From Macrostomum lignano (Eukaryota), in contig NIVC01002291.1 of NCBI GenBank assembly GCA_002269645.1, positions 124,001 through 188,000 of the forward strand: a stretch of 64,000 bases of DNA. The letters run 5' to 3'. Of the stretch, positions 4,305 through 64,000 are shown in pieces. The notes under the pieces are model-generated. The model searched no databases. It saw nothing but the letters and a program-made list of their open reading frames with translations, and was not told the origin of the DNA. The translations under genes were made by a program, and so were the position numbers. Position 1 is the stretch's first letter; every line of letters begins with the position of its first letter.

Positions 4305-7300
4305 GTTATGAGTTGCGACTGGCACACACAGGGCCGTTGACGATTCGGCAGAGGAAACCTATGACGAGCCGCCGGAGACGGTGTGGCAGAACTGCATCTA
4401 TAGTAGAATCATCTCTTTGAACTTGCCGCCGGGCTTCCTAGACGAGGAAGAGCTCGGCTGGGCTAAAGTGGTCGGCCGGCACAAATACTTATTCGCATTG
4501 AATCGGAGGCGAGCCTATTTAGCCTACTATCGATCCGATGAAGAGTTCCGCGCTCACGTGCAGACTCATCGGATGTCTTTGCGCACCTGCTTAATAAAAC
4601 CCAATCCTACTAAGTCCGGCCTAGATCTGATATCGGCCAGTGTCCGGCTAACTCTGCAATTCGAGGACAGTCAGCGCTTGGAGAAATTTCGCTTGTTAGT
4701 TGAATCGGCCATTCGCACTGATTGGACAGGCGAGGAGTCTGAGCCAGCCGCCGCCGCTGCCACAGACGCTTCAGCAACCACCAACCCCAGCCAGCAGCTT
4801 CTCCAGGTCGACTCGACCTTGTCCACTTCCACATCGTCTCTGAGCCTGCCTGTTCGTCATCAGCGGTCAGCTTCAGACAGTTCAGCAGTAGCAGCAGCAG
4901 CAGCAGCAGCCGTGATGACCGCCGTGCTTAAAAACGAATCAAATCGAGTTTGCGGAGACTGCGGCGCCGCTAATCCGCTGTGGGCCTCATTGAATCTCTG
5001 CGTCACCCTGTGCGACGATTGCAGCGGGCATCACAGAAAACTGAGCACCGACTTCTCCAAGGTGCACGGGCTTAAATTTGACGTGAAAGTCTGGACTGAC
5101 GAAGTTGTACAGCTCTTTTTGCAGCTCGGAAACGGTGCTTCCAACAGGTGAGACTAATTCTGCGATTGGGCTGCGCTGCCAGCCTCTCAGATCCTCTGTT
5201 TCTGGGCCAGCCTCCCAGATCCTCAGTTTCTGGGCCAGCCTCCCAGATCCTCAGTTGCTGGGCCGGCCTCCCAGAGCCTCAGTTGTTGGGCCAGCCTCTC
5301 AGATCCTCTGTTTCTGGGCCACAGCCTCCCAAATCCACAGTTGCTGAGCCAGCCTCCCAGATCCTCAGTTGCTGGGCCAGCCTCCCAGATCCTCAGTTGC
5401 TGGGCCAGCCTCCCAGATCCTCAGTTGCTGGGCCAGCCTCCCAGATCCTCAGTTGCTGGGCCAGCCTCTCAGATCCTCAGTTGCTGGGCCAGCCTCCCAG
5501 ATCCTCAGTTGCTGGGCCAGCCTCCCAGATCCTCAGTTGCTGGGCCAGCCTCTCAGATCCTCAGTTGCTGGGCCAGCCTCCCAGATCCTCAGTTGCTGGG
5601 CCACCGCCTCCCAAATCCTCAGTTGCTGGGCCAGCCTCCCAGATCCTCAGTTGCTGGGCCACCGCTACCCGATCCCAGATCCTCATGCAGAGCCGCAAGC
5701 CAGGCAACACAGTTACAAACGCAGCCTGCTGCACCCGGCTCCCATCCAAATTCAGTTTCTGGTGCCACAAGGAGCAGCCCAGGGTGGCGCTGCGGCAGTT
5801 CGCGACCCCCCAGGACCGGCTAAATTACATAGTTCGCAAATACGTTCGCAAAGCCTACGCCGACGACACGCCGCCCCTGGAGTTCGCCAACAGCAACCCG
5901 TTGGAGGCGGTGATGCGCGCGATCCACCTGTCCAAGTTGGACTCCGTTCAGCACCTGATCTCGGACAATTCTCTAGAGAAAAAGCTTGTAGATTTGAATA
6001 GAAAAGCTGTAGGCGAAGTCCTACTGTGGGATCAGTGCATCACTAGCGGCGAACAGTTGTGGCTGTGTTTGCGGTCCAACGGCTTACTGTGTCTGTATAA
6101 ACAGGAGATGTCTGTAAAAGAGAAACTAGACTGCTCTCATTTGTGCTTCCTGCAACTGTCTGGCAGCTTTCTGCAGCTGGCAACTGAGGCTGCATCGTTT
6201 CAACTGGCTATTAAAGAGCGACTGAGCGCCTGGTGGCATCAGCTGTGCAAGCATCTGCTGCCCGGCCTAACAGATGAGGCCGCCGCCAATCAGTACAATA
6301 TGGTGCTTAAAGTCACCGTGCAGATGGCAGAGTTTGGCAGCGAACCCCTGGACTGCATTCTGGTAGGTTTATACAGTACTCCAGCCTCTAGATGGCTTCG
6401 TTCACTAATCACCCTGACAATTGTCCCCAAATCAGCCTGACAATTGTCCCCAAATCACCCTGACAATTGTCCCCAAATCACCCTGACAATTGTCCCCAAA
6501 TCAGCCTGACAATTGTCCCCAAATCAGCCTGACAATTGTCCTCAAATCAGCCTGACAATTGTCCCCAAATCAGCCTGACAATTGTCCCCAAATCAGCCTG
6601 ACAATTGTCCCCAAATCAGCCTGACAATTGTCCCCAAATCAGCCTGACAATTGTCCCTTAAATTAGCCTGACAATTGTCCCCAAATCAGCCTGACAATTG
6701 TCCCCAAATCAGCCTGACAATTGTCCCCAAATCAGCCTGACAATTGTCCCCAAATCAGCCTGACAATTGTCCCCAAATCAGCCTGACAATTGTCCCCAAA
6801 TCAGCCTGACAATTGTCCCCAAATCACCCTGACAATTGTCCCCAAATCAGCCTGACAATTTTCCTCAAATCAGCCTGACAATTGTCCCCAAATCAGCCTG
6901 ACAATTGTCCCTTAAATTAGCCTGACAATTGTCCCCAAATCAGCCTGACAATTGTCCCCAAATCAGCCTGACAATTGTCCCCAAATCAGCCTGACAATTG
7001 TCCCCAAATCACCCTGACAATTGTCCCCAAATCAGCCTGACAATTGTCCCCAAATCAGCCTGACAATTGTCCCCAAATCAGCCTGACAATTGTCCCCAAA
7101 TCAGCCTGACAATTGTCCCCAAATCAGCCTGACAATTGTCCTCAAATCAGCCTGACAATTGTCCCCAAATCAGCCTGACAATTGTCCCCAAATCACCCTG
7201 ACAATTGTCCCTTAAATTAGCCTGACAATTGTCCCCAAATCAGCCTGACAATTGTCCCCAAATCACCCTGACAATTGTCCCCAAATCAGCCTGACAATTG

Positions 7301-43050: not shown

Positions 43051-44397
43051 ATTCATTTTCAATGCAATCAGAATGAACAGCTAAAAATTGTAGGTTCGAA
43101 CCTATAGCTGCATGGGTATACTTCTTTAAATTGCATTCTTGCCGTTCCAGACCTAAAAAAATTGCATGACATAATGACTTCTCTTTTAAATTGTTCCTTC
43201 TTCTAACAAATCAATGTAATCAAAGGCAATAATGGAAAGGTTGTTTACCCCTAACTTCTTCTTTACAAATCAAAGGTAAGCAAAGGCAATGGAAAGGCTG
43301 TTTACTCCTAAACTATACCTGTCTTTATATGAGTCGTTGGAAACAAATTTTGCTCTAAGCAGGGGCCTAAATGAACAAGAACAAAATTTATCGATGATAT
43401 CACAGGCAACTTCCCCAATCCGAATGCTATTTTTTGGATTGAACCAATATTTTGAGAGAAAAACAAGCTATATCTACATGTAGCTATTAACCAAGTCCCA
43501 AACTACACTGACATGCATCATCTACTCAAGTTCAGGTCCTTCCATCCAGAGCACTCGTTTGGAGAGGAATCCACAGGTTCTCAGATTGGCAAGTTTATTT
43601 GACAAAAGATCCAACTTCTTTGAAGCAATCAATAATACCATTGACCCGGGACAGGGGAATTCCTAACAAGAGGATTTTAAAACTGGTTTCAGTACCAGCT
43701 AAAGGTACAAAATAGTTGCTCTCGGCCCACTGCCTCTTTGTACTAGTTGCTTTTAATTTGTAAGCCCTTGACCAGCTTCAAAGGGCCTGTCAACTTAAGC
43801 TCAAGTGGAGCTTAGTGGAGCCCTAAATTGGAGCCCGATTGCTGTAACCTATGTACTCAATGATATATACATGCACGTCATTCTGCTTACTGCAGTGACA
43901 CCCAGAAGCTGGATTTCGCAAAAAGGTGACAAAAATTGGACCATGAGATATAAGGAGAGTGTGACGTTGCCAGTTTAAGGTGGTCCCGAAAAGGGCCGTT
44001 GGACTGCTGTTTCTCTATAGTTTCAACCCTTCAGTTTCACCGTTCCAACTAAACTTTTCCATTTGTTTATTGCGACGTTTACTTGTAGTAGTGCCCAACG
44101 ATTTTGTGGCAATTTCTAATTCACTGTATATTTTGCTATCCTCTCTCGCGACCGTATAAAATTGGCACGATCAATAATTTCAAGTTCTCTCGCCAGCCAA
44201 TGAAAACTCTCCGTGTTTTACGCTACCCCCTTTTTGCGCTCTTTATTAACCCTCGCCTGGCGGGCTGGGGGTTTCACTCGTCCCTGTTCTTGTGTTCGGT
44301 GTTCTCTCTCCTTAGGCTTGTCCTCCGTCCCGTCTGGCTTGCCTAGCCTTGTCTAGCCTTGTTTTCCTTCTCTCTGTCTGGCTGCCTCGGGTCTACG

Positions 44398-44730
44398 ATG
44401 TTTGCCTGCCGGACGTTTGCCAGCCGACGTTTGCCTGCGGGACGTTTGCCAGCCGACGTTTGCCAGCCGACGTTTGCCAGCCGACGTTGGCCAGCGGGAC
44501 GTTTGCCAGCCGACGTTTGCCTGCGGGACGTTTGCCAGCCGGCGTTTGCCTGCGGGACGTTTGCCAGCCGACGTTTGCCAGCCGACGTTTGCCTGCGGGA
44601 CGTTTGCCTGCCGACGTTTGCCTGCTGGACGTTTGCCTGCGGGAAGTTTGCCAGCCGACGTTTGCCAGCGGGACGTTTGCCAGCCGACGTTTGCCAGCCG
44701 ACGTTTGCCTGCGGGACGTTTGCCAGCCGG
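44398..44730 (-). repeat. GGCAAACGTC-based repeat array, reverse orientation
   Basis: GACGTTTGCC units, the reverse complement of the array at 45545-46085. Confidence 0.92.
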
Positions 44731-45544
44731 ACAGTCGCAGGCGGCAATTGGTTAAATAAGTATGCCCTCTCTAGGCTTACAACTTGCATTTGAAAACTGT
44801 GGACATAGCACTAATAATTCCACTTTGCTGCCTACTAACTGCTATTAAATATACAGGTTACTACGCTCGTAACAAACTACTTAGAACTTAGAACGCTCTT
44901 CGTCTTATTGATATTTTAGGTAGGTTTTAGTAACATGCATGTATGTACCAAAGCAACTGATGTAACCAAAACTTTCCGAACTAGCAGAACCAAAGCGTCA
45001 CTGACAATAAAGTCAGTAAGAAGACGAGGCGTCTCAGAACTAAAACACTCAGAGTTGGCAATGACACGAAAGTGGTACAGTACTGGTAATTGATTTCAAG
45101 TTGTATTTCAGGTTATCCAACTCTTCTACCGCTTGCTAATCAGATCCACTTCGCGATTTCAGATAACCTAGCGTGGAGCTGGCACTGGCAACATACTGCA
45201 CTGTACAACAGTCTAGAACCCCAAGGAAACGGCATCTTCTACTTCTTTCTCGCATTCAAGTCAACTGTGATTCTGAGAAAGGGTAAGCTGCACTCCGAAG
45301 TTTTGAACAAGAAATAACAAACACAAAGACAACTGTACGTCCGGACGAAAATATTTTAATAACTAATTAAGAACAAACAGCAAATCAATGAATACTAAAT
45401 ATATTGGTAAAATTTGTTAGTTAATTATTTCGCCACTCAGCTGAAAATGGTGGGGCATACACGAAACTTTTTACGAGTATATATTTAGTTTTTATAATGT
45501 TACAACTGCTAAATATAGCATAAATATATATAGCTAAATATATA

Positions 45545-46085
45545 GCAGTTGGCTGGCAAATGTCGGCTGGCAAACGTCCCGCAGGCAAACGTCGGCTGGC
45601 AAACGTCGGCTGGCAAACGTCGGCTGGCAAACGTCCTGCAGGCAAACGTCCTGCAGGCAAACGTCCTGCAGGCAAACGTCCTGCAGGCAAACGTCGGCTG
45701 GCAAACGTCGGCTGGCAAACGTCCTGCAGGCAAACGTCCTGCAGGCAAACGTCCTGCAGGCAAACGTCCTGCAGGCAAACGTCGGCTGGCAAACGTCGGC
45801 TGGCAAACGTCCTGCAGGCAAACGTCCTGCAGGCAAACGTCGGCTGGCAAACGTCGGCTGGCAAACATCGGCTGGCAAACGTCGGCTGGCAAACGTCGGC
45901 TGGCAAATGTCGGCTGGCAAACGTCGGCTGGCAAACGTCCCGCAGGCAAACGTCCCGCAGGCAAACGTCGGCTGGCAAACGTCCCGCAGGCAAACGTCGG
46001 CTGGCAAACGTCGGCTGGCAAACGTCGACTGGCAAACTTCCCGCAGGCAAACGTCGGCTGGCAAACGTCCCGCAGGCAAACGTCG
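45545..46085 (+). repeat. GGCAAACGTC-based repeat array
   Basis: Tandem 14-15-nt units; shorter versions occur in each 1198-bp copy. Confidence 0.92.
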
Positions 46086-46312
46086 CTATCTCGGCTGCCT
46101 CGAGCCTCCTTATCTCACGCCACGGCTGACGCCAACCTCGCCACTGCTCATCTGCCTGCCTACTGCGTCTCACTGCCTTCACTGTGCTCATTGCCATTGC
46201 TCATCACGTTACTGTTCTGTTGTTGTATTAACGAACGCAGAAACAAGATGGATAATTATCCGGGCGCTCAGTGGCACCAAAAGAAGGGGACTTGGCCAAT
46301 AGGAGGGCGGCT

Positions 46313-46412
46313 CGTATATTTATGCACGCGGGGAAGGAAAGTTCTAGAAAGACCGGGGAAGGAAACTTCTGGAACTATGCGTAAACAAGTCCGCGGTGGA
46401 AGTTTCTAGAAA
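46313..46412 (-). promoter_or_regulatory. Heat-shock-type promoter: three HSEs plus a TATA-like box (repeated at +1198, +2396, +3594)
   Basis: GAAagTTCtaGAA (46337-46349), GAAacTTCtgGAA (46362-46374) and GAAgtTTCtaGAA (46399-46411) each match GAAnnTTCnnGAA; CATAAATATA on the minus strand at 46315-46324. Confidence 0.75.
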
Positions 46413-49400
46413 CGCTGTCCCCGAACTACGAACTACCCCTACGCATCGCGTGCCTTTGCAATACACAACAGTTACGACGCCATTGCATCATTCGTCTGCC
46501 ACTTGACTTCACATTCAAGTTATCTTCAAAAACCATTGTTGCAGCCGCCAGTGCCCAGAAAGCTATAGTTTGTGTATTGACAGTAATAACCAAGCCTAAT
46601 ATTGATACTACCAATAAAAACAACTACGGCAGTTCCTGCCTTTATCGCCAAGTGCTCCGCTACAAAATCCGCTTTACAAGAGTTGACTTCAACTTATTTT
46701 GAGACTACGACTCACTACAACTCTCGTCAAAACGGCCCTTTTAAGGGTCATAGCCATAGTTAGCCGCTACGCCAATAACGTGACAAGAGAACAAGCAACA
46801 GGAACAGGGGAGAGAACAGGGGGATAGTTAGGGACTCCAATTTATAAGATTAAGATGACAGGCCCTTTTATAATCTCAAAATAATCTCAAATTATAAAGT
46901 CAGTAAGAAGACGAGGCGTCTCAGAACTAAAACACTCAGAGTTGGCAATGACACGAAAGTGGTACAGTACTGGTAATTGATTTCAAGTTGTATTTCAGGT
47001 TATCCAACTCTTCTACCGCTTGCTAATCAGATCCACTTCGCGATTTCAGATAACCTAGCGTGGAGCTGGCACTGGCAACATACTGCACTGTACAACAGTC
47101 TAGAACCCCAAGGAACTTCTGGGACGCAGGCAAACGTCCCGCAGGCAAACGTCGGCTGGCAAACGTCCCGCAGGCAAACGTCGGCTGGCAAACGTCGGCT
47201 GGCAAACGTCGACTGGCAAACGTCGACTGGCAAACTTCCCGCAGGCAAACGTCGGCTGGCAAACGTCCCGCAGGCAAACGTCGCTATCCCGGCTGCCTCG
47301 AGCCTCCTTATCTCACGCCACGGCTGACGCCAACCTCGCCACTGCTCATCTGCCTGCCTACTGCGTCTCACTGCCTTCACTGTGCTCATTGCCATTGCTC
47401 ATCACGTTACTGTTCTGTTGTTGTATTAACGAACGCAGAAACAAGATGGATAATTATCCGGGCGCTCAGTGGCACCAAAAGAAGGGGACTTGGCCAATAG
47501 GAGGGCGGCTCGTATATTTATGCACGCGGGGAAGGAAAGTTCTAGAAAGACCGGGGAAGGAAACTTCTGGAACTATGCGTAAACAAGTCCGCGGTGGAAG
47601 TTTCTAGAAACGCTGTCCCCGAACTACGAACTACCCCTACGCATCGCGTGCCTTTGCAATACACAACAGTTACGACGCCATTGCATCATTCGTCTGCCAC
47701 TTGACTTCACATTCAAGTTATCTTCAAAAACCATTGTTGCAGCCGCCAGTGCCCAGAAAGCTATAGTTTGTGTATTGACAGTAATAACCAAGCCTAATAT
47801 TGATACTACCAATAAAAACAACTACGGCAGTTCCTGCCTTTATCGCCAAGTGCTCCGCTACAAAATCCGCTTTACAAGAGTTGACTTCAACTTATTTTGA
47901 GACTACGACTCACTACAACTCTCGTCAAAACGGCCCTTTTAAGGGTCATAGCCATAGTTAGCCGCTACGCCAATAACGTGACAAGAGAACAAGCAACAGG
48001 AACAGGGGAGAGAACAGGGGGATAGTTAGGGACTCCAATTTATAAGATTAAGATGACAGGCCCTTTTATAATCTCAAAATAATCTCAAATTATAAAGTCA
48101 GTAAGAAGACGAGGCGTCTCAGAACTAAAACACTCAGAGTTGGCAATGACACGAAAGTGGTACAGTACTGGTAATTGATTTCAAGTTGTATTTCAGGTTA
48201 TCCAACTCTTCTACCGCTTGCTAATCAGATCCACTTCGCGATTTCAGATAACCTAGCGTGGAGCTGGCACTGGCAACATACTGCACTGTACAACAGTCTA
48301 GAACCCCAAGGAACTTCTGGGACGCAGGCAAACGTCCCGCAGGCAAACGTCGGCTGGCAAACGTCCCGCAGGCAAACGTCGGCTGGCAAACGTCGGCTGG
48401 CAAACGTCGACTGGCAAACGTCGACTGGCAAACTTCCCGCAGGCAAACGTCGGCTGGCAAACGTCCCGCAGGCAAACGTCGCTATCCCGGCTGCCTCGAG
48501 CCTCCTTATCTCACGCCACGGCTGACGCCAACCTCGCCACTGCTCATCTGCCTGCCTACTGCGTCTCACTGCCTTCACTGTGCTCATTGCCATTGCTCAT
48601 CACGTTACTGTTCTGTTGTTGTATTAACGAACGCAGAAACAAGATGGATAATTATCCGGGCGCTCAGTGGCACCAAAAGAAGGGGACTTGGCCAATAGGA
48701 GGGCGGCTCGTATATTTATGCACGCGGGGAAGGAAAGTTCTAGAAAGACCGGGGAAGGAAACTTCTGGAACTATGCGTAAACAAGTCCGCGGTGGAAGTT
48801 TCTAGAAACGCTGTCCCCGAACTACGAACTACCCCTACGCATCGCGTGCCTTTGCAATACACAACAGTTACGACGCCATTGCATCATTCGTCTGCCACTT
48901 GACTTCACATTCAAGTTATCTTCAAAAACCATTGTTGCAGCCGCCAGTGCCCAGAAAGCTATAGTTTGTGTATTGACAGTAATAACCAAGCCTAATATTG
49001 ATACTACCAATAAAAACAACTACGGCAGTTCCTGCCTTTATCGCCAAGTGCTCCGCTACAAAATCCGCTTTACAAGAGTTGACTTCAACTTATTTTGAGA
49101 CTACGACTCACTACAACTCTCGTCAAAACGGCCCTTTTAAGGGTCATAGCCATAGTTAGCCGCTACGCCAATAACGTGACAAGAGAACAAGCAACAGGAA
49201 CAGGGGAGAGAACAGGGGGATAGTTAGGGACTCCAATTTATAAGATTAAGATGACAGGCCCTTTTATAATCTCAAAATAATCTCAAATTATAAAGTCAGT
49301 AAGAAGACGAGGCGTCTCAGAACTAAAACACTCAGAGTTGGCAATGACACGAAAGTGGTACAGTACTGGTAATTGATTTCAAGTTGTATTTCAGGTTATC

Positions 49401-51094
49401 CAACTCTTCTACCGCTTGCTAATCAGATCCACTTCGCGATTTCAGATAACCTAGCGTGGAGCTGGCACTGGCAACATACTGCACTGTACAACAGTCTAGA
49501 ACCCCAAGGAACTTCTGGGACGCAGGCAAACGTCCCGCAGGCAAACGTCGGCTGGCAAACGTCCCGCAGGCAAACGTCGGCTGGCAAACGTCGGCTGGCA
49601 AACGTCGACTGGCAAACGTCGACTGGCAAACTTCCCGCAGGCAAACGTCGGCTGGCAAACGTCCCGCAGGCAAACGTCGCTATCCCGGCTGCCTCGAGCC
49701 TCCTTATCTCACGCCACGGCTGACGCCAACCTCGCCACTGCTCATCTGCCTGCCTACTGCGTCTCACTGCCTTCACTGTGCTCATTGCCATTGCTCATCA
49801 CGTTACTGTTCTGTTGTTGTATTAACGAACGCAGAAACAAGATGGATAATTATCCGGGCGCTCAGTGGCACCAAAAGAAGGGGACTTGGCCAATAGGAGG
49901 GCGGCTCGTATATTTATGCACGCGGGGAAGGAAAGTTCTAGAAAGACCGGGGAAGGAAACTTCTGGAACTATGCGTAAACAAGTCCGCGGTGGAAGTTTC
50001 TAGAAACGCTGTCCCCGAACTACGAACTACCCCTACGCATCGCGTGCCTTTGCAATACACAACAGTTACGACGCCATTGCATCATTCGTCTGCCACTTGA
50101 CTTCACATTCAAGTTATCTTCAAAAACCATTGTTGCAGCCGCCAGTGCCCAGAAAGCTATAGTTTGTGTATTGACAGTAATAACCAAGCCTAATATTGAT
50201 ACTACCAATAAAAACAACTACGGCAGTTCCTGCCTTTATCGCCAAGTGCTCCGCTACAAAATCCGCTTTACAAGAGTTGACTTCAACTTATTTTGAGACT
50301 ACGACTCACTACAACTCTCGTCAAAACGGCCCTTTTAAGGGTCATAGCCATAGTTAGCCGCTACGCCAATAACGTGACAAGAGAACAAGCAACAGGAACA
50401 GGGGAGAGAACAGGGGGATAGTTAGGGACTCCAATTTATAAGATTAAGATGACAGGCCCTTTTATAATCTCAAAATAATCTCAAATTTTATCAACCTGCC
50501 GTACTGCAAACAATTGTATAGTAATCAACAACAGCAACAAGATATTTGCATGCCGGCGCGAAAGGTCAAAAAGAATATACATAAAGATCACCGCGAACAA
50601 AATTATTCGTAAAAGCATCGAGTTCTCAGCTATGTCAGAGTCAGAGGAATGACCTGCAACTTGGTACGAATGAAGTGCTACCTAGCTTATCCTCTTAAAG
50701 TCGCGACTACCTCTATACAGTACTACACAGTATGTGCAGGCGCTTGTTGGTCCGACCAGTCCAGTGCAGCTATATAACTTGTAGCGGTGTTGAAAAAATA
50801 AGGCGTGGGGTGGTGGGTTCTTAGGTAATTTGATTTATCGCGGAATTTTCTAGAATTGCAATTCATGCTACTATACAAACGAGTTGCCAAAATTACGCTT
50901 ATGCACATATTTAAGTAAAAAAATGCTTTTTTAACTTTTTAATTAGTATTTAAAACTCTAGTATACTAGCTAAGGTGAGTTTTAACGTAATAAAATTATT
51001 CCTTTAGTATTAGAATTGTTATATTAAGTAGTGGTTTATATCGCTTTCAGATTCAAACAGCATCATCTTAAGTAGAGTTACAGCTGATTGATAG

Positions 51095-52554
51095 ATGCAG
51101 GGATTCCCCGAGCGATATTCAAGATCGATATTCGGAAATAACAAAAATCTTTGCTTTTAAAGCACCAAACGCTATGATTTTTTACAGAAAAAACATCACC
51201 CACGAGATAAACCTACTTGAAAAAAATTACGGCTACAGATAGAAAGGATTTTTTACAATTTGCAAAAAACTGATGTTCCTATCTCCGCAATGTATTAGAT
51301 TGATATTCGATTTCGAGTACTTCTGCTTGCTCTCTGTCGCTGAAAATTGACATGCAGGACTTCACCCAGACACTAAGCGATTATCATAACTCAAACCGAA
51401 CTCAAAGCTTCATGCTCGAGAACTATTTGAGAGATGAGGTAAGCCACTTTTTGTCCCTGTGTCACATCTTAATCTTTGTGGCATAGTAGCCATTTGTAAA
51501 TTTTATTTCATAGCTACGAAATGCCTCGAAATTTGGACGATTTACAGATCGATAGCGTTGTGACTGATGGAATAAAAAAGTTTGCAACGCCTCGTAGTTT
51601 TAAAGCTTCGGCTCCCATCTTCTGCTACATCGCAGAACGACTAAATTTGAGGAATACCATACACAATCGAGCCATGATGTTCCACTGGATTCGCAAAAGA
51701 ACAAAAGAAAAAAATGAATTGGCCGGATTGACTGGAACTTTCTCTGAGGGCCGCATTCCTTTGATTAGTACTCCCCCTAGACCTTCTGAGGGTCACTCTC
51801 CTCCGGTTAGCACTCCCCTTAGTCCTGAAACTCATTCTATTGTATCGACTGATGTATTGTCACTCGATGTCAAGCAGAAGAGCCGCCAAAAGCAGACGGT
51901 GCAGCAACAATTGATTGGGTGAGTTGTAAAATTCTTGTACGCATAAACACCTCTGTGCCAAATATCCATACACATGTACTCACTTTACCTTTACTTCTTG
52001 TACATGCACTACGGTAGATTGAGTGCTCATCCTGTCTTGACTGGATCCACTGCGTCTGTGCATCCACAACGCAAGAAGAGGAAAACTTCTGCTGCTCGAC
52101 CTGCATCAATTTACTCAGCTGATCGATTACCATACAAGTCAATGGCCTAACTTTGTGCAGCATTAAATATGCATGACTATTAGACTATAGTCTAATGATT
52201 TAATTAAATGATAAGATTAAAGAGCTAATTGAGTTTCATCTAAATTATAATTTATTCAGTGCAAATAAACGCTTAGTGTCTGGGTGAAGTCCTGCATGTC
52301 AATTTTCAGCGACAGAGAGCAAGCAGAAGTACTCAAAATCGAATATCAATCTAATACATTGCGGAGATAGGAACATCAGTTTTTTGCAAATTGTAAAAAA
52401 TCCTTTCTATCTGTAGCCGTAATTTTTTTCAAGTCGGTTTATCTTGTGGGTGATGTTTTTTCTGTAAAAAATCATAGCGTTTGGTGCTTTAAAAGCAAAG
52501 ATTTTTGTTATTTCCAAATATCAATCTTGAATATCGCTCGGGGAATCCCTGCAT
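51095..52554. mobile_element. Mutator/MULE-like non-autonomous DNA transposon, about 290-bp TIRs, 9-bp TSD
   Basis: ATGCAGGGATTCCCCGAGCG... at 51095 and its reverse complement ending at 52554; GATTGATAG at 51086-51094 and 52555-52563. Confidence 0.88.
51434..51918 (+). CDS. Spliced ORF of unknown function inside the MULE (51434-51438 joined to 51514-51918; downstream exon not found)
   Basis: ATGAG|gtaagc ... tttcatag|C TAC GAA ATG opens a 135-codon frame ending GG|gtgagt. Confidence 0.45.
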
Positions 52555-54604: not shown

Positions 54605-56809
54605 TGATGTAACCGCCCTTGTCGCCTGTCCGCTCCGTAGAGAGACGAACGCATGACTAGAGGGGGCAATGACCGTAGGCTGCCTATGACCGGGCAATGA
54701 CCTGACGGACCTCCAGCACCAGACTGTCCCGCCCACATGATTAGTAGCTTTGGTAGCGCTTCGTGACCAGAGGGCCAAGGACCCACATGGACCCCACCTG
54801 TAGCCAAGGTGCAATAGTTGGTCACTCGGTCATAGTATGACCGAGTGGCTGCCACCACTCTATGTGACCTGGCGCACCTGGATCTTTCTACCAGACCTCT
54901 CGAGGCTAGAGCCCCGCCTGGATTGGTTACCAGGGGATTCAGGCTAACAGGGGAGACGCATGCAGCCGAGTACAGGGACTCTGCTTGGGGCATGATCGGG
55001 AACTCTGGGCTCAATCCTGGAGGATTTCTCAGCAGGGGATCCTTTGTGGCTGTGAGCGAGGCTGACTTGCGACTTTGATTACTAAGAGTAGTATGAGGCG
55101 AACATGTACTGTCTACAGTTTAGATTGCTCAGGGCGAAGGGACGCGTTAGCATGGGGTTGCAACCTTCCTACTGCCATGCTGTGCCAAGTCTCGCTAATC
55201 CCTCTACTGCACGCACACGCGGCCCCGCAGCACGCACTCACAGGCGGGCTTTGCACAGGGAGAGGCCATTAGCTTACCCAAACTTCCTTATGCTTTGCCA
55301 CCCCGGGAGAAAGGCTTAGCAAGCCATGAGTGAAATGATGGTGAAAGATTGAATAATGATGAAGTTAGTTAATAGTTAATAATTAGGCCCTTAGGCGAAT
55401 AATCAGGCAATTAGGCGGCTTCACTATTGAGTAAAATACAGCAAAAGATACGGTATCACAATTGGCTCAGCTCTCTAATCAGACAATGGAAAATAGGCAA
55501 ACCCCGGATAAGCAAAGGCAATTAGAGCACAAATTAGTAACAGGAACTTACCGGCAGCTGCACAGAGAGAGAGAGAGGCGGAGTGACCGGTGGCGGCTGT
55601 AGGCTGCAATCAGGCAGACGGTGAAGCGGCGATGCGCTGGAGCGACGAGGCGCTGATGTGGATCAGGCAATGCTGATGATGCTGGGCGGTGTCAGACCGC
55701 TGGCCGATAGGCGAGCTCACTTGGGGAGCTAAGGATAACTTGGCGGTAACAGACCGCGGACCGGCAGGGACTCGTCTTATAGACGAATGGGTCAGAACTC
55801 AATCTGACGGCAAGTCCAAAGAAGGACGAGGAGAGGAAAAAGTTGAGGATTCTCATGCCGAAATCGCTTCCTTTTATAGACCTCACAGCCGCCTCCTCAA
55901 GGTCGTTACCATGGCTCCCTCTCTCTGATTGGCTGCCGGCAGAATGACGTCAGAATGAGTAATGATGAGAAGCATGAGACCGGCATAGCAACATGAGAAA
56001 TAGGGAAATTGCGCAATCCGGAGGTGGGGTGGGGGGATAATTGGCGCAGCGGGAGGTCGCGAAAGTGTTGCGCAAGCAAACATTGAGAACAATAGGGCTG
56101 GGGTCGAGAACAAAGGAATTGGAAATCGGGGATAATTGGGGAAAACTGAGAACAATGGAAAAGTAAACATTGGAGAAAAGGTGATAATTAGGTGCGAAAA
56201 CGAGAACAAAAGAAAGAGAAAATCGGAGAAAATGTGATAATTGGTGGGGTCGAGAGAACAAAAGAATCAAAAACGAGAACAATAGAAGCAGAGGTGGGGT
56301 GGGTGTCGCATGAGAAATTTGGGAGGAGAACAATAGCATGAGAAAAGGTTGCGCAAGAGAGGGGGATGAGTCATCGATGAGTCATCGGGGGGAAGAAGGG
56401 GTCACACGACTTGCGTCACCGTTTGGGAGTTTGGGAGGGGATGGGGAGACGGTGAGCACACAAAATACTGTAAGTAGACACAGAGAAGGAGGGGACAGCG
56501 CAGGAAAAAAAGTGCAGAGAGAGATAAAAAGAGGGGGGAAAGGGAAAGTACAGGAAGAATAGGGCGGAAACAGAAGAGATAGGGTAGAGGGGGAGGTACA
56601 GAAAGGGGTAGGGGGCTCCGGAAAGGCAGGTGTGGCGGCAGGAGAGACGGGACCAAGGCAGCAGGAGGGGTGCAGCAGAGCGGGAGTCTCCAGGCCCGGT
56701 CGGAGACCTGGCCGAGTCTCGACAGCTCTGTGCAGAGGGTGCACGGGATAGGAGGCACTTTCGAAAAAGTTCCCATGCCCTATCCCGCGACCAGAGCGTG
56801 GTTACATCA
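54605..56809 (-). repeat. 3' LTR, 2205 bp
   Basis: TGATGTAACC...GGTTACATCA 10-bp terminal inverted repeat; PPT-like GGCAGTGGGGGTG (minus strand) at 56810-56822. Confidence 0.85.
55872..55932 (-). promoter_or_regulatory. LTR promoter (TATAAAA plus upstream CCAAT)
   Basis: Minus-strand TATAAAA at 55878-55872 and CCAAT about 50 bp upstream. Confidence 0.55.
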
Positions 56810-57413
56810 CACCCCCACTGCCTTTTGTGACGGAACTGGTTCCGTCATCATCACTGCCCAACATGGAACCACACAGACGGGAGCGGGATCTCAACCGAAC
56901 GTGAAATCACAGAATTAACAAACCGCGAGCGGGAATGGAAAAAGGCGATAAAATAGAGGGGATAGCAATAAATTCACAAAACGAGATACATAGGTTGAAG
57001 TGCAATACAGAATTTCAAAAATTTCAACTGTTGCTGTGGCTAAAGTGGGAGGGGGGAAACACAGACAGCGCAATAGTAGGGAGAAAAATAGCGAATTGTC
57101 AACAATAAATTATCATAATTGGATAGAAGCGCAGCTGGGAAAGAGGAAACGGGGAAGGGTGAGGGAAGTGGGGAAAAAGAAGGGGGGGAAGGGTTGCTAG
57201 CACACAGCCAAGGGCAGAGCCTCGGGGAGAATGACAATTACACAGGGGAAAAATACTAATGCAGCGCAGTAAATTAATAAGCTAATTTCGCCGGGAGTTC
57301 AACCGCACGGAGGCCTAGCGTCCTTGAAGGCTCGGACCCCGCTTCAGCCAGTCAGAGGGCTTCGGGGCGATCGGTTGTAGGCTGGGAGGCGCCGCGCCGT
57401 GCGCTGGCCACTG

Positions 57414-57420
57414 TATAAAA
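57414..57420 (+). promoter_or_regulatory. TATA box of a putative antisense transcript
   Basis: TATAAAA in a GC-rich context about 100 bp before a consensus donor CG|GTAAGT. Confidence 0.5.
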
Positions 57421-57459
57421 GGCGCCACTGATAACGGGAGCCGGCTGCCTGCAACCTAC

Positions 57460-58747
57460 ACGGAGTCGCAGTTTCCAACCAAGGCACTCAGCGCGATTTT
57501 CCAAACTATACAACTACTCGGTAAGTCCCATCACCAACCTGATTTCCTTTCGCCTATACGTTAAACGAAATCCACCCACTTGCCATGCCTTTCATATTAA
57601 ACTGAGCCAACTGTAGTAGTACAATATGTCTTTTCTTACGGTACTAAGAGTGAGAGGCCAACACAGACTTATTTTTATGAATTTGATTGACGCACAACAA
57701 AGACTCGTATATTATTAGTAAAAGGTGGCATATTAGAAAAACAAGTTTTTATTGGAAAAATAGTGAAATTAAAAATAGTGGCACACACAGAAACACACAC
57801 ACAGGCCTCATTCACATCTCCGAAACCCTCAAAAACTTAACAGCCGAAAGAGTTTGAAAGAGGAATTAATCATTAATTTGACTGCCACCAGTTTGATGTA
57901 CTATTATAAAAGAGAAAGGGGAACCTACCACCACCTTGGCGCATTACTAAAGAAAAGAAAAGGAGGATCCGCCACCATTTTGAGAGAGGTTGCTAGGGAA
58001 AACTGCCACCAATTGTACATTAACAGGGAAGAGAAAGAGGGAACCCGTCACCACTAAGAGTGGATTGCCCGGGGAAACTGCCACCATTTGCCCTTCTACC
58101 AGAGGAGAGGAAGACGAAAAACTGCCATCACTTAGAGGTGTATCATTAAAAGAAGGCGGGGAAGAAGGCTACCACTACTTGATCACCTAGAGCTCAAGGG
58201 GAGGAGAGGGAATGAAGAAAGGAAGAAACCCCCAGGAAGGCCACTACCACACGCCATAAAGTTAAAATCCCCATCTATCTACATCCTAATACCCGGCTAG
58301 TTCCCTACTTCTATTTCATCCCTTAAATTCTCATTTTCAGGATTCCGGCCGCTAGTAGCCGAGCCCATCCTTGAAGAGGAGTCCGACTACGAAGCGCCCG
58401 AAGACAGCCATTCAGAGCCGGACGCCCCCTCTGATTCTGGGCCGGCTGCGCCATCTGGTGACATAGGCGCCGCGGCTCCCGGGCCATGCGACCGCCGGGC
58501 CGCCAGCGAACCAGCGTCCGGGGCCGGTTGGCATCCGGTACCACCGCCGTTGTCAGCCCGAGCGCACGCTCCGCCGCCGGTCGCCGCGGTGACGCCCGTG
58601 GCTGCCGCTCCACAGCCCTTGCCAACCCCTGTGGTGGAGACCGACGGCTCCTGGCATTTGGTCGTGCTGTCGACGGCCCTAATAGCCGGTCTCACAATGC
58701 ACTGGCTACTGCTCTTGGAGCTATTTCTGCGGCTTCCCAACTGCTGA
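57460..58747 (+). CDS. Putative antisense spliced gene (57460-57520 joined to 58341-58747), about 155 aa, acidic/Pro-Ala-rich with a C-terminal hydrophobic segment; no ATG (ACG at 57460 assumed)
   Basis: Donor GTAAGT at 57521, acceptor CATTTTCAG at 58340, phase-1 join open to TGA at 58745-58747. Confidence 0.45.
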
Positions 58748-59331
58748 TGCTGGTGGTTCTTAATGCTTACTTACTAATTCTGAACTATCTGTCCCCATAA
58801 CTTGACTTTAATTACTTACCTGACTTTACATTGACTAAACCACTGGCCTACTCTAAACTAATTGCTGCCCCATTTGCCTGATAAACTTAATTACATTGAA
58901 TGCCCCCCTATTGCCTCATTGAAACCAATTAAAAGTTTCCCAAAATCGGACTTTCACAAAGTGTGAACAAACACACGAAATCAGACCTAAAGGTGCTAAT
59001 TTCCTACGGTCCCAGACTTCCATTGTTCCCAGAAAATCTTAAACAGCGGGGCAGGACCTCCTGTGGAGCAGACCCATAGAAATTTTACTAGTTTCCAAGT
59101 TAATATTTACTGATAGGGAATTAACGCATACTGTACGGGCCTAATTTTCGAGCTAAAATCTTAGATATTTAAACAACACCAACGAGCACGAGGTCACAAC
59201 ATAAATTCGAGTAATAGAGGGCATACGTAAATACGCGAAAAGCGGTCTCCAACGGGGCAACACGAGCAAAATTTCGACACGCGAATCGGGGGGGGAATTA
59301 AGCAATCACTGGCTAGCTACCGATCTGTTAC

Positions 59332-59846
59332 TCAGCGGGGGTCGAATGGGAGACTCACACCTAGCAAGTAAACCTTTTCTGTTCGATAGTCTATGATAGC
59401 ATGCGTACTGGCTAGAAAAGCACTACCCAGGAGGGAAACTGCTGCTGAATTGCCAACGACCAGAAAGAGGATTCTCACCTCTTCTAGCCCAATAACTGCT
59501 GTTAGGGTGGCCTGGCCTAGCATCTCTAATTCATTGCCCGTGTAGGACACGGCCTTCACACATGGGGGCTCCAGGGCCTCCACACTCTGTCCGGTAATTT
59601 TAGTAAAGTCTTTGACTGTTAGCAAAGACAGCGCACTGCCCCATCTACCAGGAGGCGGGTGGGAACATTCTCAATTGGCAACTCTACAACAATATCTCTC
59701 CCGCGTTGTCCTCTAGCTGGTCTTGGCTGATAGAAATCGGGTACCTTCTCAAATCTAAACTTCTTGCTGGGCGGACGTGGCAGGTTAAGCTGGGCCCTAG
59801 AGAGGGAACGGGGCTGAGTTCGGGCCGGGCCATTCAGCCCTCCCAC
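59332..59846 (-). pseudogene. Retroviral-type aspartic protease, frameshifted at the active site
   Basis: VELPIENVPTRLLVDGA followed by a frameshift into LLTVKDF...LLGSAFLASTHAIIDY (LLGxDFL-like motif). Confidence 0.7.
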
Positions 59847-59972
59847 GGGTTTCCCGAACCCGGGGCTCTTCAGGCGTGGAAGGAGGAGGCATCAGAGCTT
59901 GCGCGCGCAGCTGGGCGAGCCTCTCCTGCCTCTCCCTGGTAGCCTCGTCTAACATATCTCTGCCCCACTCCT

Positions 59973-61276
59973 CTAAATCTTGCCTATGGCGATCAGTGGC
60001 GCACGAAGCTGCAATTGCTGCTGCTGCACACCCGGCGCCGGCGGCGTGGGCGCCTCCTGAATTGCAAGCGGCGGGGGCTGGGGTTGGCGCCAGTTCCTAC
60101 TGCTATTAGAGCCGCCCTGCCCCTGCCTCCAGTTCCTGTTGGGAGTGGCGGGGCGAGGGGGCCTCATCTGCTGGGGCAGCTGGGCAACAGACTCTGCTGT
60201 CGCCTTCATAGTTTCATTGAGCTGCACCAGCTGGTTGCGCAGATCTTTTTGCGTTTGCTCTAGCGCGCCCAACCTCTCTTGCATCTCTGATAGGCCGTCA
60301 CCGTCCTCCTCCGTCTCGTCAGCTTCCTGGTTCACCATCCTGACCCACTTGCGAGGGGGCCTGGGTGGCTGCTGAGGTTGCAGACGGACTTCGGTGCGGG
60401 ACTCAGACCTGGGCGGGCCACTACTGTCCCATTTCCCGGCTAAGTCTGCGGCTTCTAACAGGGCTTGCTGCTGTTCTAACACCTGCTCAATTGTCTGCCA
60501 GCGACGGCTCAACAGATCTTGTCTGACCTGGCGGGGGAGCTTAGCGTGTTCCAAGTAGGTGTACACGATTTCTTGTTCTCTCTGCTCACCCTGAATCTGA
60601 GGAAACATGGCCGTTATCTGAGATCTTATCATAGCAGCAAAAGCACTATGTGATTGGCCGGGTTTCTGGCTCAGATTCTTCAGCTTATTTCTCTTAGCCA
60701 GATCAGTGTTGGCCTCGCCCAACTGCTCTCCTAATCTAGATACGAACTGCTCAAAGGGCAATTGCCCGTCCAATCCTAAGGCTAAGTTCTGAAATTCACC
60801 TGGGAGGTGCGAGATGAGCACCTGCTTCCTAGCCTGATCTCCTACAGTTCTCTCCGCGTCCAGCTTGTAGATCATTCTCTCTACCCATTGCACAAAACAG
60901 TGTTCGCCGGAGAGAACTTTTCTACGTAGATTTTCGGCCTCTGGGCGTCTTGGCCCATGTTTAGCTGGTTAAACGCATTGGCTATAGCGGCAACTAAGTC
61001 TCCTAGCTGCGGGACTGCCTGAGGAGGATTCTGGGCTGCGTCCGGGGGAGCAGCGGCGGCTGCTGCGCCACCCTGATTGGGAGCGGGAGCTGCTACTCCT
61101 TCATCTGGTTCCTCAACTACTACTGCTTCTGGAGGCTGAGGGACCTGGTTACCAGCGGCTGCGGCCATTGCGGCTGCGGGGGCGGCAACTGCTGGGGTGT
61201 CAGCGGCCGAGGGTGGTTGACCAGGGGCGTCTGCGCACACAGCTTCTACGACCCTATCTCCACGCGCCCGTGACAT
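59973..61276 (-). pseudogene. Gag-like protein with a frameshift near 60893
   Basis: KIYVEKFSP / QWVERM..LISHL..FEQFVSRL..LKQ-like KNLSQKPGQSHSAFAAMI retrotransposon gag motifs; coiled-coil C-terminal part. Confidence 0.75.
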
Positions 61277-63625: not shown

Positions 63626-63644
63626 AATCCCACCGCTGCCACCA
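63626..63644 (-). other. Primer-binding site complementary to the tRNA-Leu(AAG/TAG) 3' end
   Basis: TGGTGGCAGCGGTGGGATT located 3 nt inside the LTR; matches the recalled tRNA-Leu 3' end ...AATCCCACCGCTGCCA-CCA. Confidence 0.8.
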
Positions 63645-63647
63645 TTT

Positions 63648-64000
63648 TGATGTAACCGCCCTTGTCGCCTGTCCGCTCCGTAGAGAGACGAACGCATGAC
63701 TAGAGGGGGCAATGACCGTAGGCTGCCTATGACCGGGCAATGACCTGACGGACCTCCAGCACCAGACTGTCCCGCCCACATGATTAGTAGCTTTGGTAGC
63801 GCTTCGTGACCAGAGGGCCAAGGACCCACATGGACCCCACCTGTAGCCAAGGTGCAATAGTTGGTCACTCGGTCATAGTATGACCGAGTGGCTGCCACCA
63901 CTCTATGTGACCTGGCGCACCTGGATCTTTCTACCAGACCTCTCGAGGCTAGAGCCCCGCCTGGATTGGTTACCAGGGGATTCAGGCTAACAGGGGAGAC
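63648..64000 (-). repeat. 5' LTR (truncated by the window end)
   Basis: Matches 54605-54957. Confidence 0.9.

Follow-up and report, generated by a model that had tools for sequence, protein, structure and literature searches.

Most known examples of extra genes carried in antisense orientation by LTR retrotransposons come from plants, and no function has been established for them. Such antisense open reading frames (aORFs) are described for plants and a fungus in the relevant parts of two papers (PMC7264820, PMC11963269). The plant examples given there (maize Grande gene23, RIRE2 and Retand) are antisense to gag, follow the enzyme genes ahead of the 3' LTR, and are conserved across copies; Grande has its own internal promoter. 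One of these sources, a review, asks in its part on the subject for antisense and spliced transcripts to be looked for (PMC7264820). HTLV-1 hbz, which is spliced, and HIV-1 asp, whose product is a predicted transmembrane protein, combine a spliced antisense mRNA with an accessory protein and a shadow-frame overlap with a sense gene, and the retroviral antisense promoters are described in the section consulted as TATA-less and located inside the 3' LTR (PMC10186651).

Here we examine a 64,000-nt stretch of the genome of the flatworm Macrostomum lignano (hereafter, the window; all plain positions refer to it). We consider it probable that positions 58341-58747 are the last exon of a spliced antisense coding gene, that fuller copies of the surrounding element make from it a 215-amino acid protein with a predicted C-terminal anchor, and that the window copy, without the start exon, likely cannot. 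As in the plants, the antisense ORF has the enzyme genes on one side and the 3' LTR on the other and is kept in most copies, and the candidate promoter resembles that of Grande in being internal. Unlike the plant aORFs, the Macrostomum gene has an animal host, is spliced, overlaps a second sense accessory gene and has no TRP28 domain; its product has a predicted membrane tail, whereas the plant aORF product is described as a nuclear protein. With hbz it shares a spliced antisense mRNA (seen in contigs of runs guessed to be RNA), but it has no bZIP, its host element is not a retrovirus, and its candidate promoter has a TATA box and lies outside the 3' LTR, 600 bp into the internal region. In the literature searched we found no account of this antisense gene or of a protease/RT split pair, and Repbase and classification catalogues may list the families. 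The main text of a Macrostomum survey (PMC12801592) contains none of the terms antisense, protease, non-autonomous, ORF and splic, and its further supplements may list families.

The host element and its missing cassette

The antisense feature is enclosed by an LTR element of 11,249 bp, whose LTRs (54605-56809 and 63648-65853) are 99.7% identical. On the minus strand, the 5' LTR (63648..64000, continuing to 65853 beyond the window) is followed by a primer-binding site (63627..63644), which we take to be of the tRNA-Leu type, then by a probable gag gene (59836..61276), an aspartic protease gene (59332..59760), a polypurine tract (56812..56826) and the 3' LTR (54605..56809; 2205 bp, with TG...CA termini, beside a 4-bp target-site duplication). 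Gag has 481 amino acids in the fuller copy L086, lacks a CCHC knuckle and evolves with a dN/dS of 0.04; in the window copy its frame is broken near 60968 and near 59975. The window gag piece matches no Pfam gag family, and the gag of a sister family discussed below weakly matches PNMA (E 0.025). The protein is 23-28% similar to ORFs that head many long polyproteins in the genome. The protease has a profile match of 9.7e-20 and dN/dS values of 0.09 and 0.17. Its motif reads D-G-G instead of D-S/T-G in 58 of 69 loci; the other loci have a frameshift there, and the window-copy frame is broken at the motif. This D-G-G protease is conserved, and its activity is putative and unproven.

Neither the window element nor the fuller copy L086 contains RT, RNase H or integrase. 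The sequence-only reading, made before any database search, had described pol as missing; this holds for RT and integrase, but a protease is present, and RT and integrase are found on a protease-less partner. The window element is a young flatworm Gag+protease LTR element. A DNA search for the family gave 46 matches in the best 40 of 105 candidates, from which we put the number of young copies at about 40 or more. In the runs compared, contig depth over the LTR (55000-56800) is far above that of the internal region, as expected from many LTR copies, and the 5' leader has no contig cover in runs X1 and X5. Another chimeric form occurs at L121 (C497) and L122 (C498), which carry the family's gag (93-94%); the similarity ends near the gag end and no protease match follows. 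Elsewhere in the window, a 1198-bp unit containing a short simple repeat is repeated in tandem about four times (45400-50300; inverted copies at 44396-44732), 290-bp inverted repeats (98%) flank an 880-bp core with a 140-amino acid frame in a DNA-transposon-like arrangement (51095-52554), and long tandem arrays with units of 23, 37 and 20 bp start from 6268, 14400 and 21481.

The window copy is a deletion derivative. The fuller copies (C650, C464 and C1115) measure 13.2 kb, and compared with them about 1.95 kb is absent at 57723..57817 (between 57722 and 57798). In the fuller copies this segment holds an ATG-bearing antisense exon of 245 nt and a sense gene of 449 codons. Twelve copies (the window copy and 11 others) belong to the same breakpoint class, which appears as a joint 902->2960 in contigs of run X16; at least three further, distinct deletions affect the middle cassette in other copies.

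The 449-amino acid gene lies on the gag strand (L086:1128-2477, minus) and is under strong constraint (dN/dS 0.06-0.08); TATA-like and CCAAT-like boxes upstream of it are kept in diverged copies. Its product belongs to no Pfam family and found no match in a word-index search. A full HMMER search gave three matches, of which P0012 and P0014 are real and P0013 was rejected as a repeat-protein artefact. Homologs occur in the sister family and, as P0015 indicates (33% over 330 amino acids), elsewhere. The predicted fold has a pLDDT of 37 for the single sequence and 53 with seven sequences, with a core (residues 151-300) at 60-90; compared with PDB and BFVD, the model found no match at E<=0.001, the best (VIA Z 6.0) being generic helical bundles. 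A subfamily (L083:5956-8077 in C616; also C3922 and C3989) has a 2.1-kb insertion adjoining the promoter of this gene, and its last antisense exon is 79% identical.

Exons, constraint and predicted product of the antisense gene

The sequence-only reading had proposed, on the strand opposite gag, a spliced gene for a tail-anchored protein. Its motifs are in place: TATAAAA at 57414, a donor G|GTAAGT with its GT at 57521, and an acceptor, ...TTTTCAG, ending at 58340. The frame 58301-58747 is open and ends in TGA, the two pieces are phase-compatible (phase 1), and between TATA box and donor there is no ATG, with an ACG at 57460. As for chance levels, TATAAAA occurs 12+10 times in the window, GGTAAGT once on the + strand, and a phase match is expected in one of three cases. 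The 3' exon stands above chance on two counts: contigs of two runs use its acceptor in a GT..AG joint, and purifying selection acts on its frame.

Aligned with the window, contigs of run X1 have a loose end exactly at 58340, whose sequence derives from within the missing segment. In the coordinates of L086 the joint runs 2427->3481, skipping 1053 nt with GT..AG on the strand opposite gag. X1 and X12 contigs thereby show the acceptor (58319..58340, +) in use, but with another donor than the one first proposed. Depth at the joint is 31 in X1 (study P1), against 20-25 for the flanking intron contigs, and 28.2 in X12 (study P6), against 9.5-12. The joint is absent from X5 and X16, two of the four runs compared with the fuller copy. 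These data are assembled contigs without strand, from runs whose type is guessed to be RNA; on its shorter side the joint extends over 28 letters. The genome contains the donor-side 28-mer 32 times, in each case followed by G|GTAAG (30) or G|GCAAG (2) and never by the last exon. Automatic Macrostomum lignano gene models in UniRef join the same exons (P0008, 215 amino acids; the assigned names are meaningless), but the RNA data behind these models may be the same, and they do not count as independent of it. We hold the middle-to-last exon junction to be established with high confidence.

The middle exon has its ATG at +4 behind the acceptor, and its 245 nt leave phase 1 in 22 of 32 copies; one of the others is cut by a contig end and nine have small indels. 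Its donor is kept as G|GT(A/G)AG in C100, C201 and C513, despite an amino acid change in the overlapping gene. The last coding exon (58341..58747, +) contributes 134 amino acids, with an acidic part, a Pro/Ala-rich linker and a hydrophobic end, and a candidate poly(A) signal, ATTAAA, follows at 58928..58933.

Coding constraint on the last exon is next to certain. In the + frame, dN/dS is 0.20 (p 6.5e-7) against C100 and 0.32 (p 3.7e-6) against C616, while the value against a third diverged copy, C513, is 0.56 and not significant (p 0.14); the proposed check for dN/dS below 1 thus came out positive against two of three copies. Intron and 3'UTR controls give 0.68-1.33. Over the last 36 codons the values are 0.13, 0.09 and 0.36. 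One other frame has a low dN/dS, the minus-strand shadow, which has stops. The frame is intact in 22 of 30 near-identical loci, and two decayed fragments of 42-49% identity retain the hydrophobic end. The middle exon offers no independent evidence of constraint, its third codon positions coinciding with those of the 449-amino acid gene. We also considered the +2 frame from the ATG at 58486 (104 amino acids, hydrophobic end) and rejected it: dN/dS is about 1.0-1.3 and diverged copies have stops.

The predicted 215-amino acid product has a basic N-terminus (net +7 in 30 residues), followed by an acidic and then a Pro/Ala-rich middle. The predicted C-terminal membrane segment (58658..58717, +; KD19 2.0-2.1) spans 19-20 residues with nine residues after it, is the only hydrophobic segment and is not accompanied by an N-terminal signal. 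It is marginal, with an apparent dG of about 0 for 19 residues, and would fit a weakly hydrophobic type of tail anchor. The term tail-anchored can be retained for this family as a prediction, but not for the sister family, whose protein lacks the segment. No Pfam family was found for the last exon or for the 215-amino acid P0008 (E<=1), TRP28 (PF04195) included; ESM Atlas gave no usable match for P0008, and Rfam nothing at gathering score. All seven matches to the last exon come from Macrostomum lignano (proteins of 73-235 amino acids compared).

Small accessory membrane proteins in env-less elements have a parallel in the sORF2/FAST-like proteins of MDG1-group LTR elements. As characterized in the part of PMC11952523 that deals with them, sORF2 proteins are 63-107 amino acids long; a central transmembrane segment separates an ectodomain at the N-terminus, in many cases myristoylated, from a polybasic patch behind it. 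P0008 differs from them in its 215 amino acids, its antisense gene, a segment nine residues from the C-terminus and the lack of an MG start. The bdelloid rotifer LTR elements with ORF3 are likewise Ty3/gypsy elements of an animal whose extra genes are not env, include some with transmembrane segments and are expressed as separate units; the portion of their description seen contains no antisense gene (PMC5408684).

The sister family (gag core 39-44% identical; protease D-S-G; no RT) has the same layout, known there from genomic sequence: a TATA-like box, a donor, the homologous sense gene, an ATG exon and a last exon. Its sense gene aligns to the 449-amino acid gene with a score of 84, which none of 300 shuffles reached. 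The ATG exon (89 nt, phase 1) lies inside the start of the sense gene in all six cassette-bearing copies examined; the cassette was found in one of the first eight stretches and in six more from a targeted search. The last exon has a dN/dS of 0.18-0.19 (p<=6e-16). The encoded protein, however, lacks a hydrophobic segment (KD19 max 0.94) and is unrelated in sequence to that of the window family, 66 of 300 shuffles scoring as high. The same layout with unrelated proteins indicates that the layout is old and conserved and that the tail anchor is family-specific. The first exon of the sister family (L105:4540-4697 and equivalents) has a stop-free frame continuous with that of the next exon in 15 of 16 stretches, and one of its positions reads ATG (9), ATC (6) or ATA (1); it may be partly coding.

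Where transcription may start, and the alternatives

The TATA box (57414..57420, +) is the likely antisense promoter. It is kept in the diverged copies C100 and C616 and in the RT-integrase partner, and is deleted in C513. We lean slightly toward a transcript that would start there, with a probably non-coding first exon (57421..57520, +; 5' end approximate; no ATG, ending G|GTAAGT) whose donor at 57520 would be spliced to the middle exon. The contigs of six runs contain no joint from this donor to the middle or the last acceptor, and an X12 contig (496-2429) crosses both donor 57520 and the middle acceptor unbroken. The middle exon would overlap the first ~95 codons of the 449-amino acid gene, whose promoter would lie in the next intron; that the two head-on units restrain each other is about an even bet.

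The sequence-only reading had instead spliced the TATA exon straight to 58341, with coding from a non-AUG start. Such a form, either an alternative isoform or the main product of the deletion copies, is phase-compatible, and its first-exon frame is open in five of six haplotypes, with seven synonymous against six non-synonymous variants and one stop variant (one-sided p 0.035, uncorrected for three frames). Twelve copies have the window deletion, most of them with an intact last exon, and the sister first exon, too, reads through in frame into the next, 9 of 16 stretches having an ATG. But the predicted junction 57520/58341 was found in none of the six runs, searched as assembled contigs, which drop rare forms, and among the loose ends listed. 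Among 53 distinct copies (four duplicate loci removed), position 57460 belongs to an ACG in 51, and to an ACC and an ACT in the two most diverged; none has ATG, so that the ACG is rejected as a decayed ATG, and the start codon is found in the middle exon that the window copy lacks. Moreover, the RT partner shares the TATA exon but lacks the last exon, and the deletion copies, being ~99% identical, are too young for an intact frame to mean selection. After direct splicing in the window copy, the first ATG encountered would be 58486, which is out of frame. We consider this form unlikely.

A less improbable variant, though still one we would not expect, keeps the coding exons and changes the 5' end: transcription would begin just upstream of the middle exon, or a spliced leader would be added at its acceptor, and the TATA box and donor would serve another RNA, e.g., a regulatory antisense RNA common to both partners. 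Spliced-leader trans-splicing is common in flatworms, the ATG lies 4 nt behind the middle acceptor, and the TATA exon is kept in elements that lack the coding exons; the unbroken contigs and the missing first-to-middle joint also fit. Yet no loose end falls at the middle acceptor among those listed, TATA box, donor and middle acceptor follow in the same order in both families, and short 5' exons are presumably easily lost from contigs. Finally, the antisense transcript might act as RNA alone, through silencing or transcriptional interference, with an incidental open frame. The conservation of the transcription layout, but not of the protein, between the two families would agree with this, and non-coding antisense RNAs of retrotransposons are known, as the passage on them in PMC7264820 relates. 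The third-position bias and dN/dS of 0.18-0.32 in the last exon of both families, where no minus-strand gene overlaps, make it very improbable.

A spliced coding gene is the reading we prefer, and the broader claim, that the usual place of pol inside this LTR element is taken by a spliced antisense accessory gene whose predicted product has a hydrophobic segment near its C-terminus, is supported. Protein, anchor and function are predictions from sequence and contigs. It is tempting to propose, if only tentatively, that the protein would be a trans-acting accessory factor that positions or regulates particle assembly, its basic N-terminus carried on a disordered stalk and its tail held in an organelle membrane. 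Action in trans, as proposed, would account for deletion copies that keep multiplying.

A protease-less partner and a possible two-part element

The partner is a 12.3-kb Gag-RT-RNaseH-integrase element found in nine copies (L116:1939-10000 and L117:1-4272 in G000 C936; also C691, C1115, C2436, C2803, C2925, C3880, C4365 and C1708). It shares with the window family the LTR (97%), the 5' leader (99.95%), the first 78 Gag residues, and 902 bp adjoining the 3' LTR that include TATA 57414 and donor 57521. Its frame of 1553 codons encodes a divergent Gag, RT, RNase H and integrase in gypsy order, with no protease family and no D-S/T-G before RT. A protease profile had no match in any of six partner copies tested (of nine found) or in two of two sister-family partners (best iE 0.094), against 1e-19 to 1e-32 for three positives. 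The 15 outside homologs examined were selected because they span the region and have a protease family; in every one the protease motif precedes the aligned part by 89-170 residues. Among the best 150 candidates scored of 1197, none was a closer RT lineage with a protease. The sister family has a protease-less partner of its own (C3095, C1757), which carries the sister LTR and is 54% identical to the first. A long antisense open frame, with an acceptor-like site and then an ATG near 5777, also runs over the integrase tail of the first partner (L116:5094-5996, +) and may be due to chance.

The gene content of the two LTR-sharing elements is thus complementary in two family pairs. A preprint reportedly treats a plant copia pair with split coding capacity. 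In wheat RLG_Cereba/RLG_Quinta, as set out in the account used here, a Gag element without RT and integrase has the primer-binding site, LTR termini and LTR sequence of its RT partner (PMC11302176), and the Macrostomum pair has these three in common as well. Cereba, however, encodes its own protease and is autonomous (according to the same portion of PMC11302176), whereas the Macrostomum RT partner has no detectable protease, so that neither element encodes all enzymes. With an RT partner lacking protease and a Gag element carrying it, dependence would run both ways, and we infer that the two elements may be mutually dependent.

Gag+protease and protease-less RT elements with common LTRs suggest a two-part retrotransposon. 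On balance we find somewhat better than even support for an animal two-segment LTR retrotransposon, in which one half would carry Gag, protease, the 449-amino acid gene and the antisense gene, and the other a divergent Gag, RT, RNase H and integrase without protease. The split would be old, given two diverged pairs, and the antisense membrane protein, serving both the Gag+protease element and its RT/integrase partner, would help the halves meet or balance. The role of the antisense gene is testable, since its host has transgenesis (as reported in the part of PMC5730564 consulted), junction and selection evidence are at hand, and natural deletion variants exist. An RT-seeded survey, such as that of PMC12801592 as far as its main text describes it, would by itself miss the Gag+protease half. 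If true, a complementary pair that occurs twice in one genome would amount to a segmented retroelement genome, a form of cooperation usually discussed for viruses.
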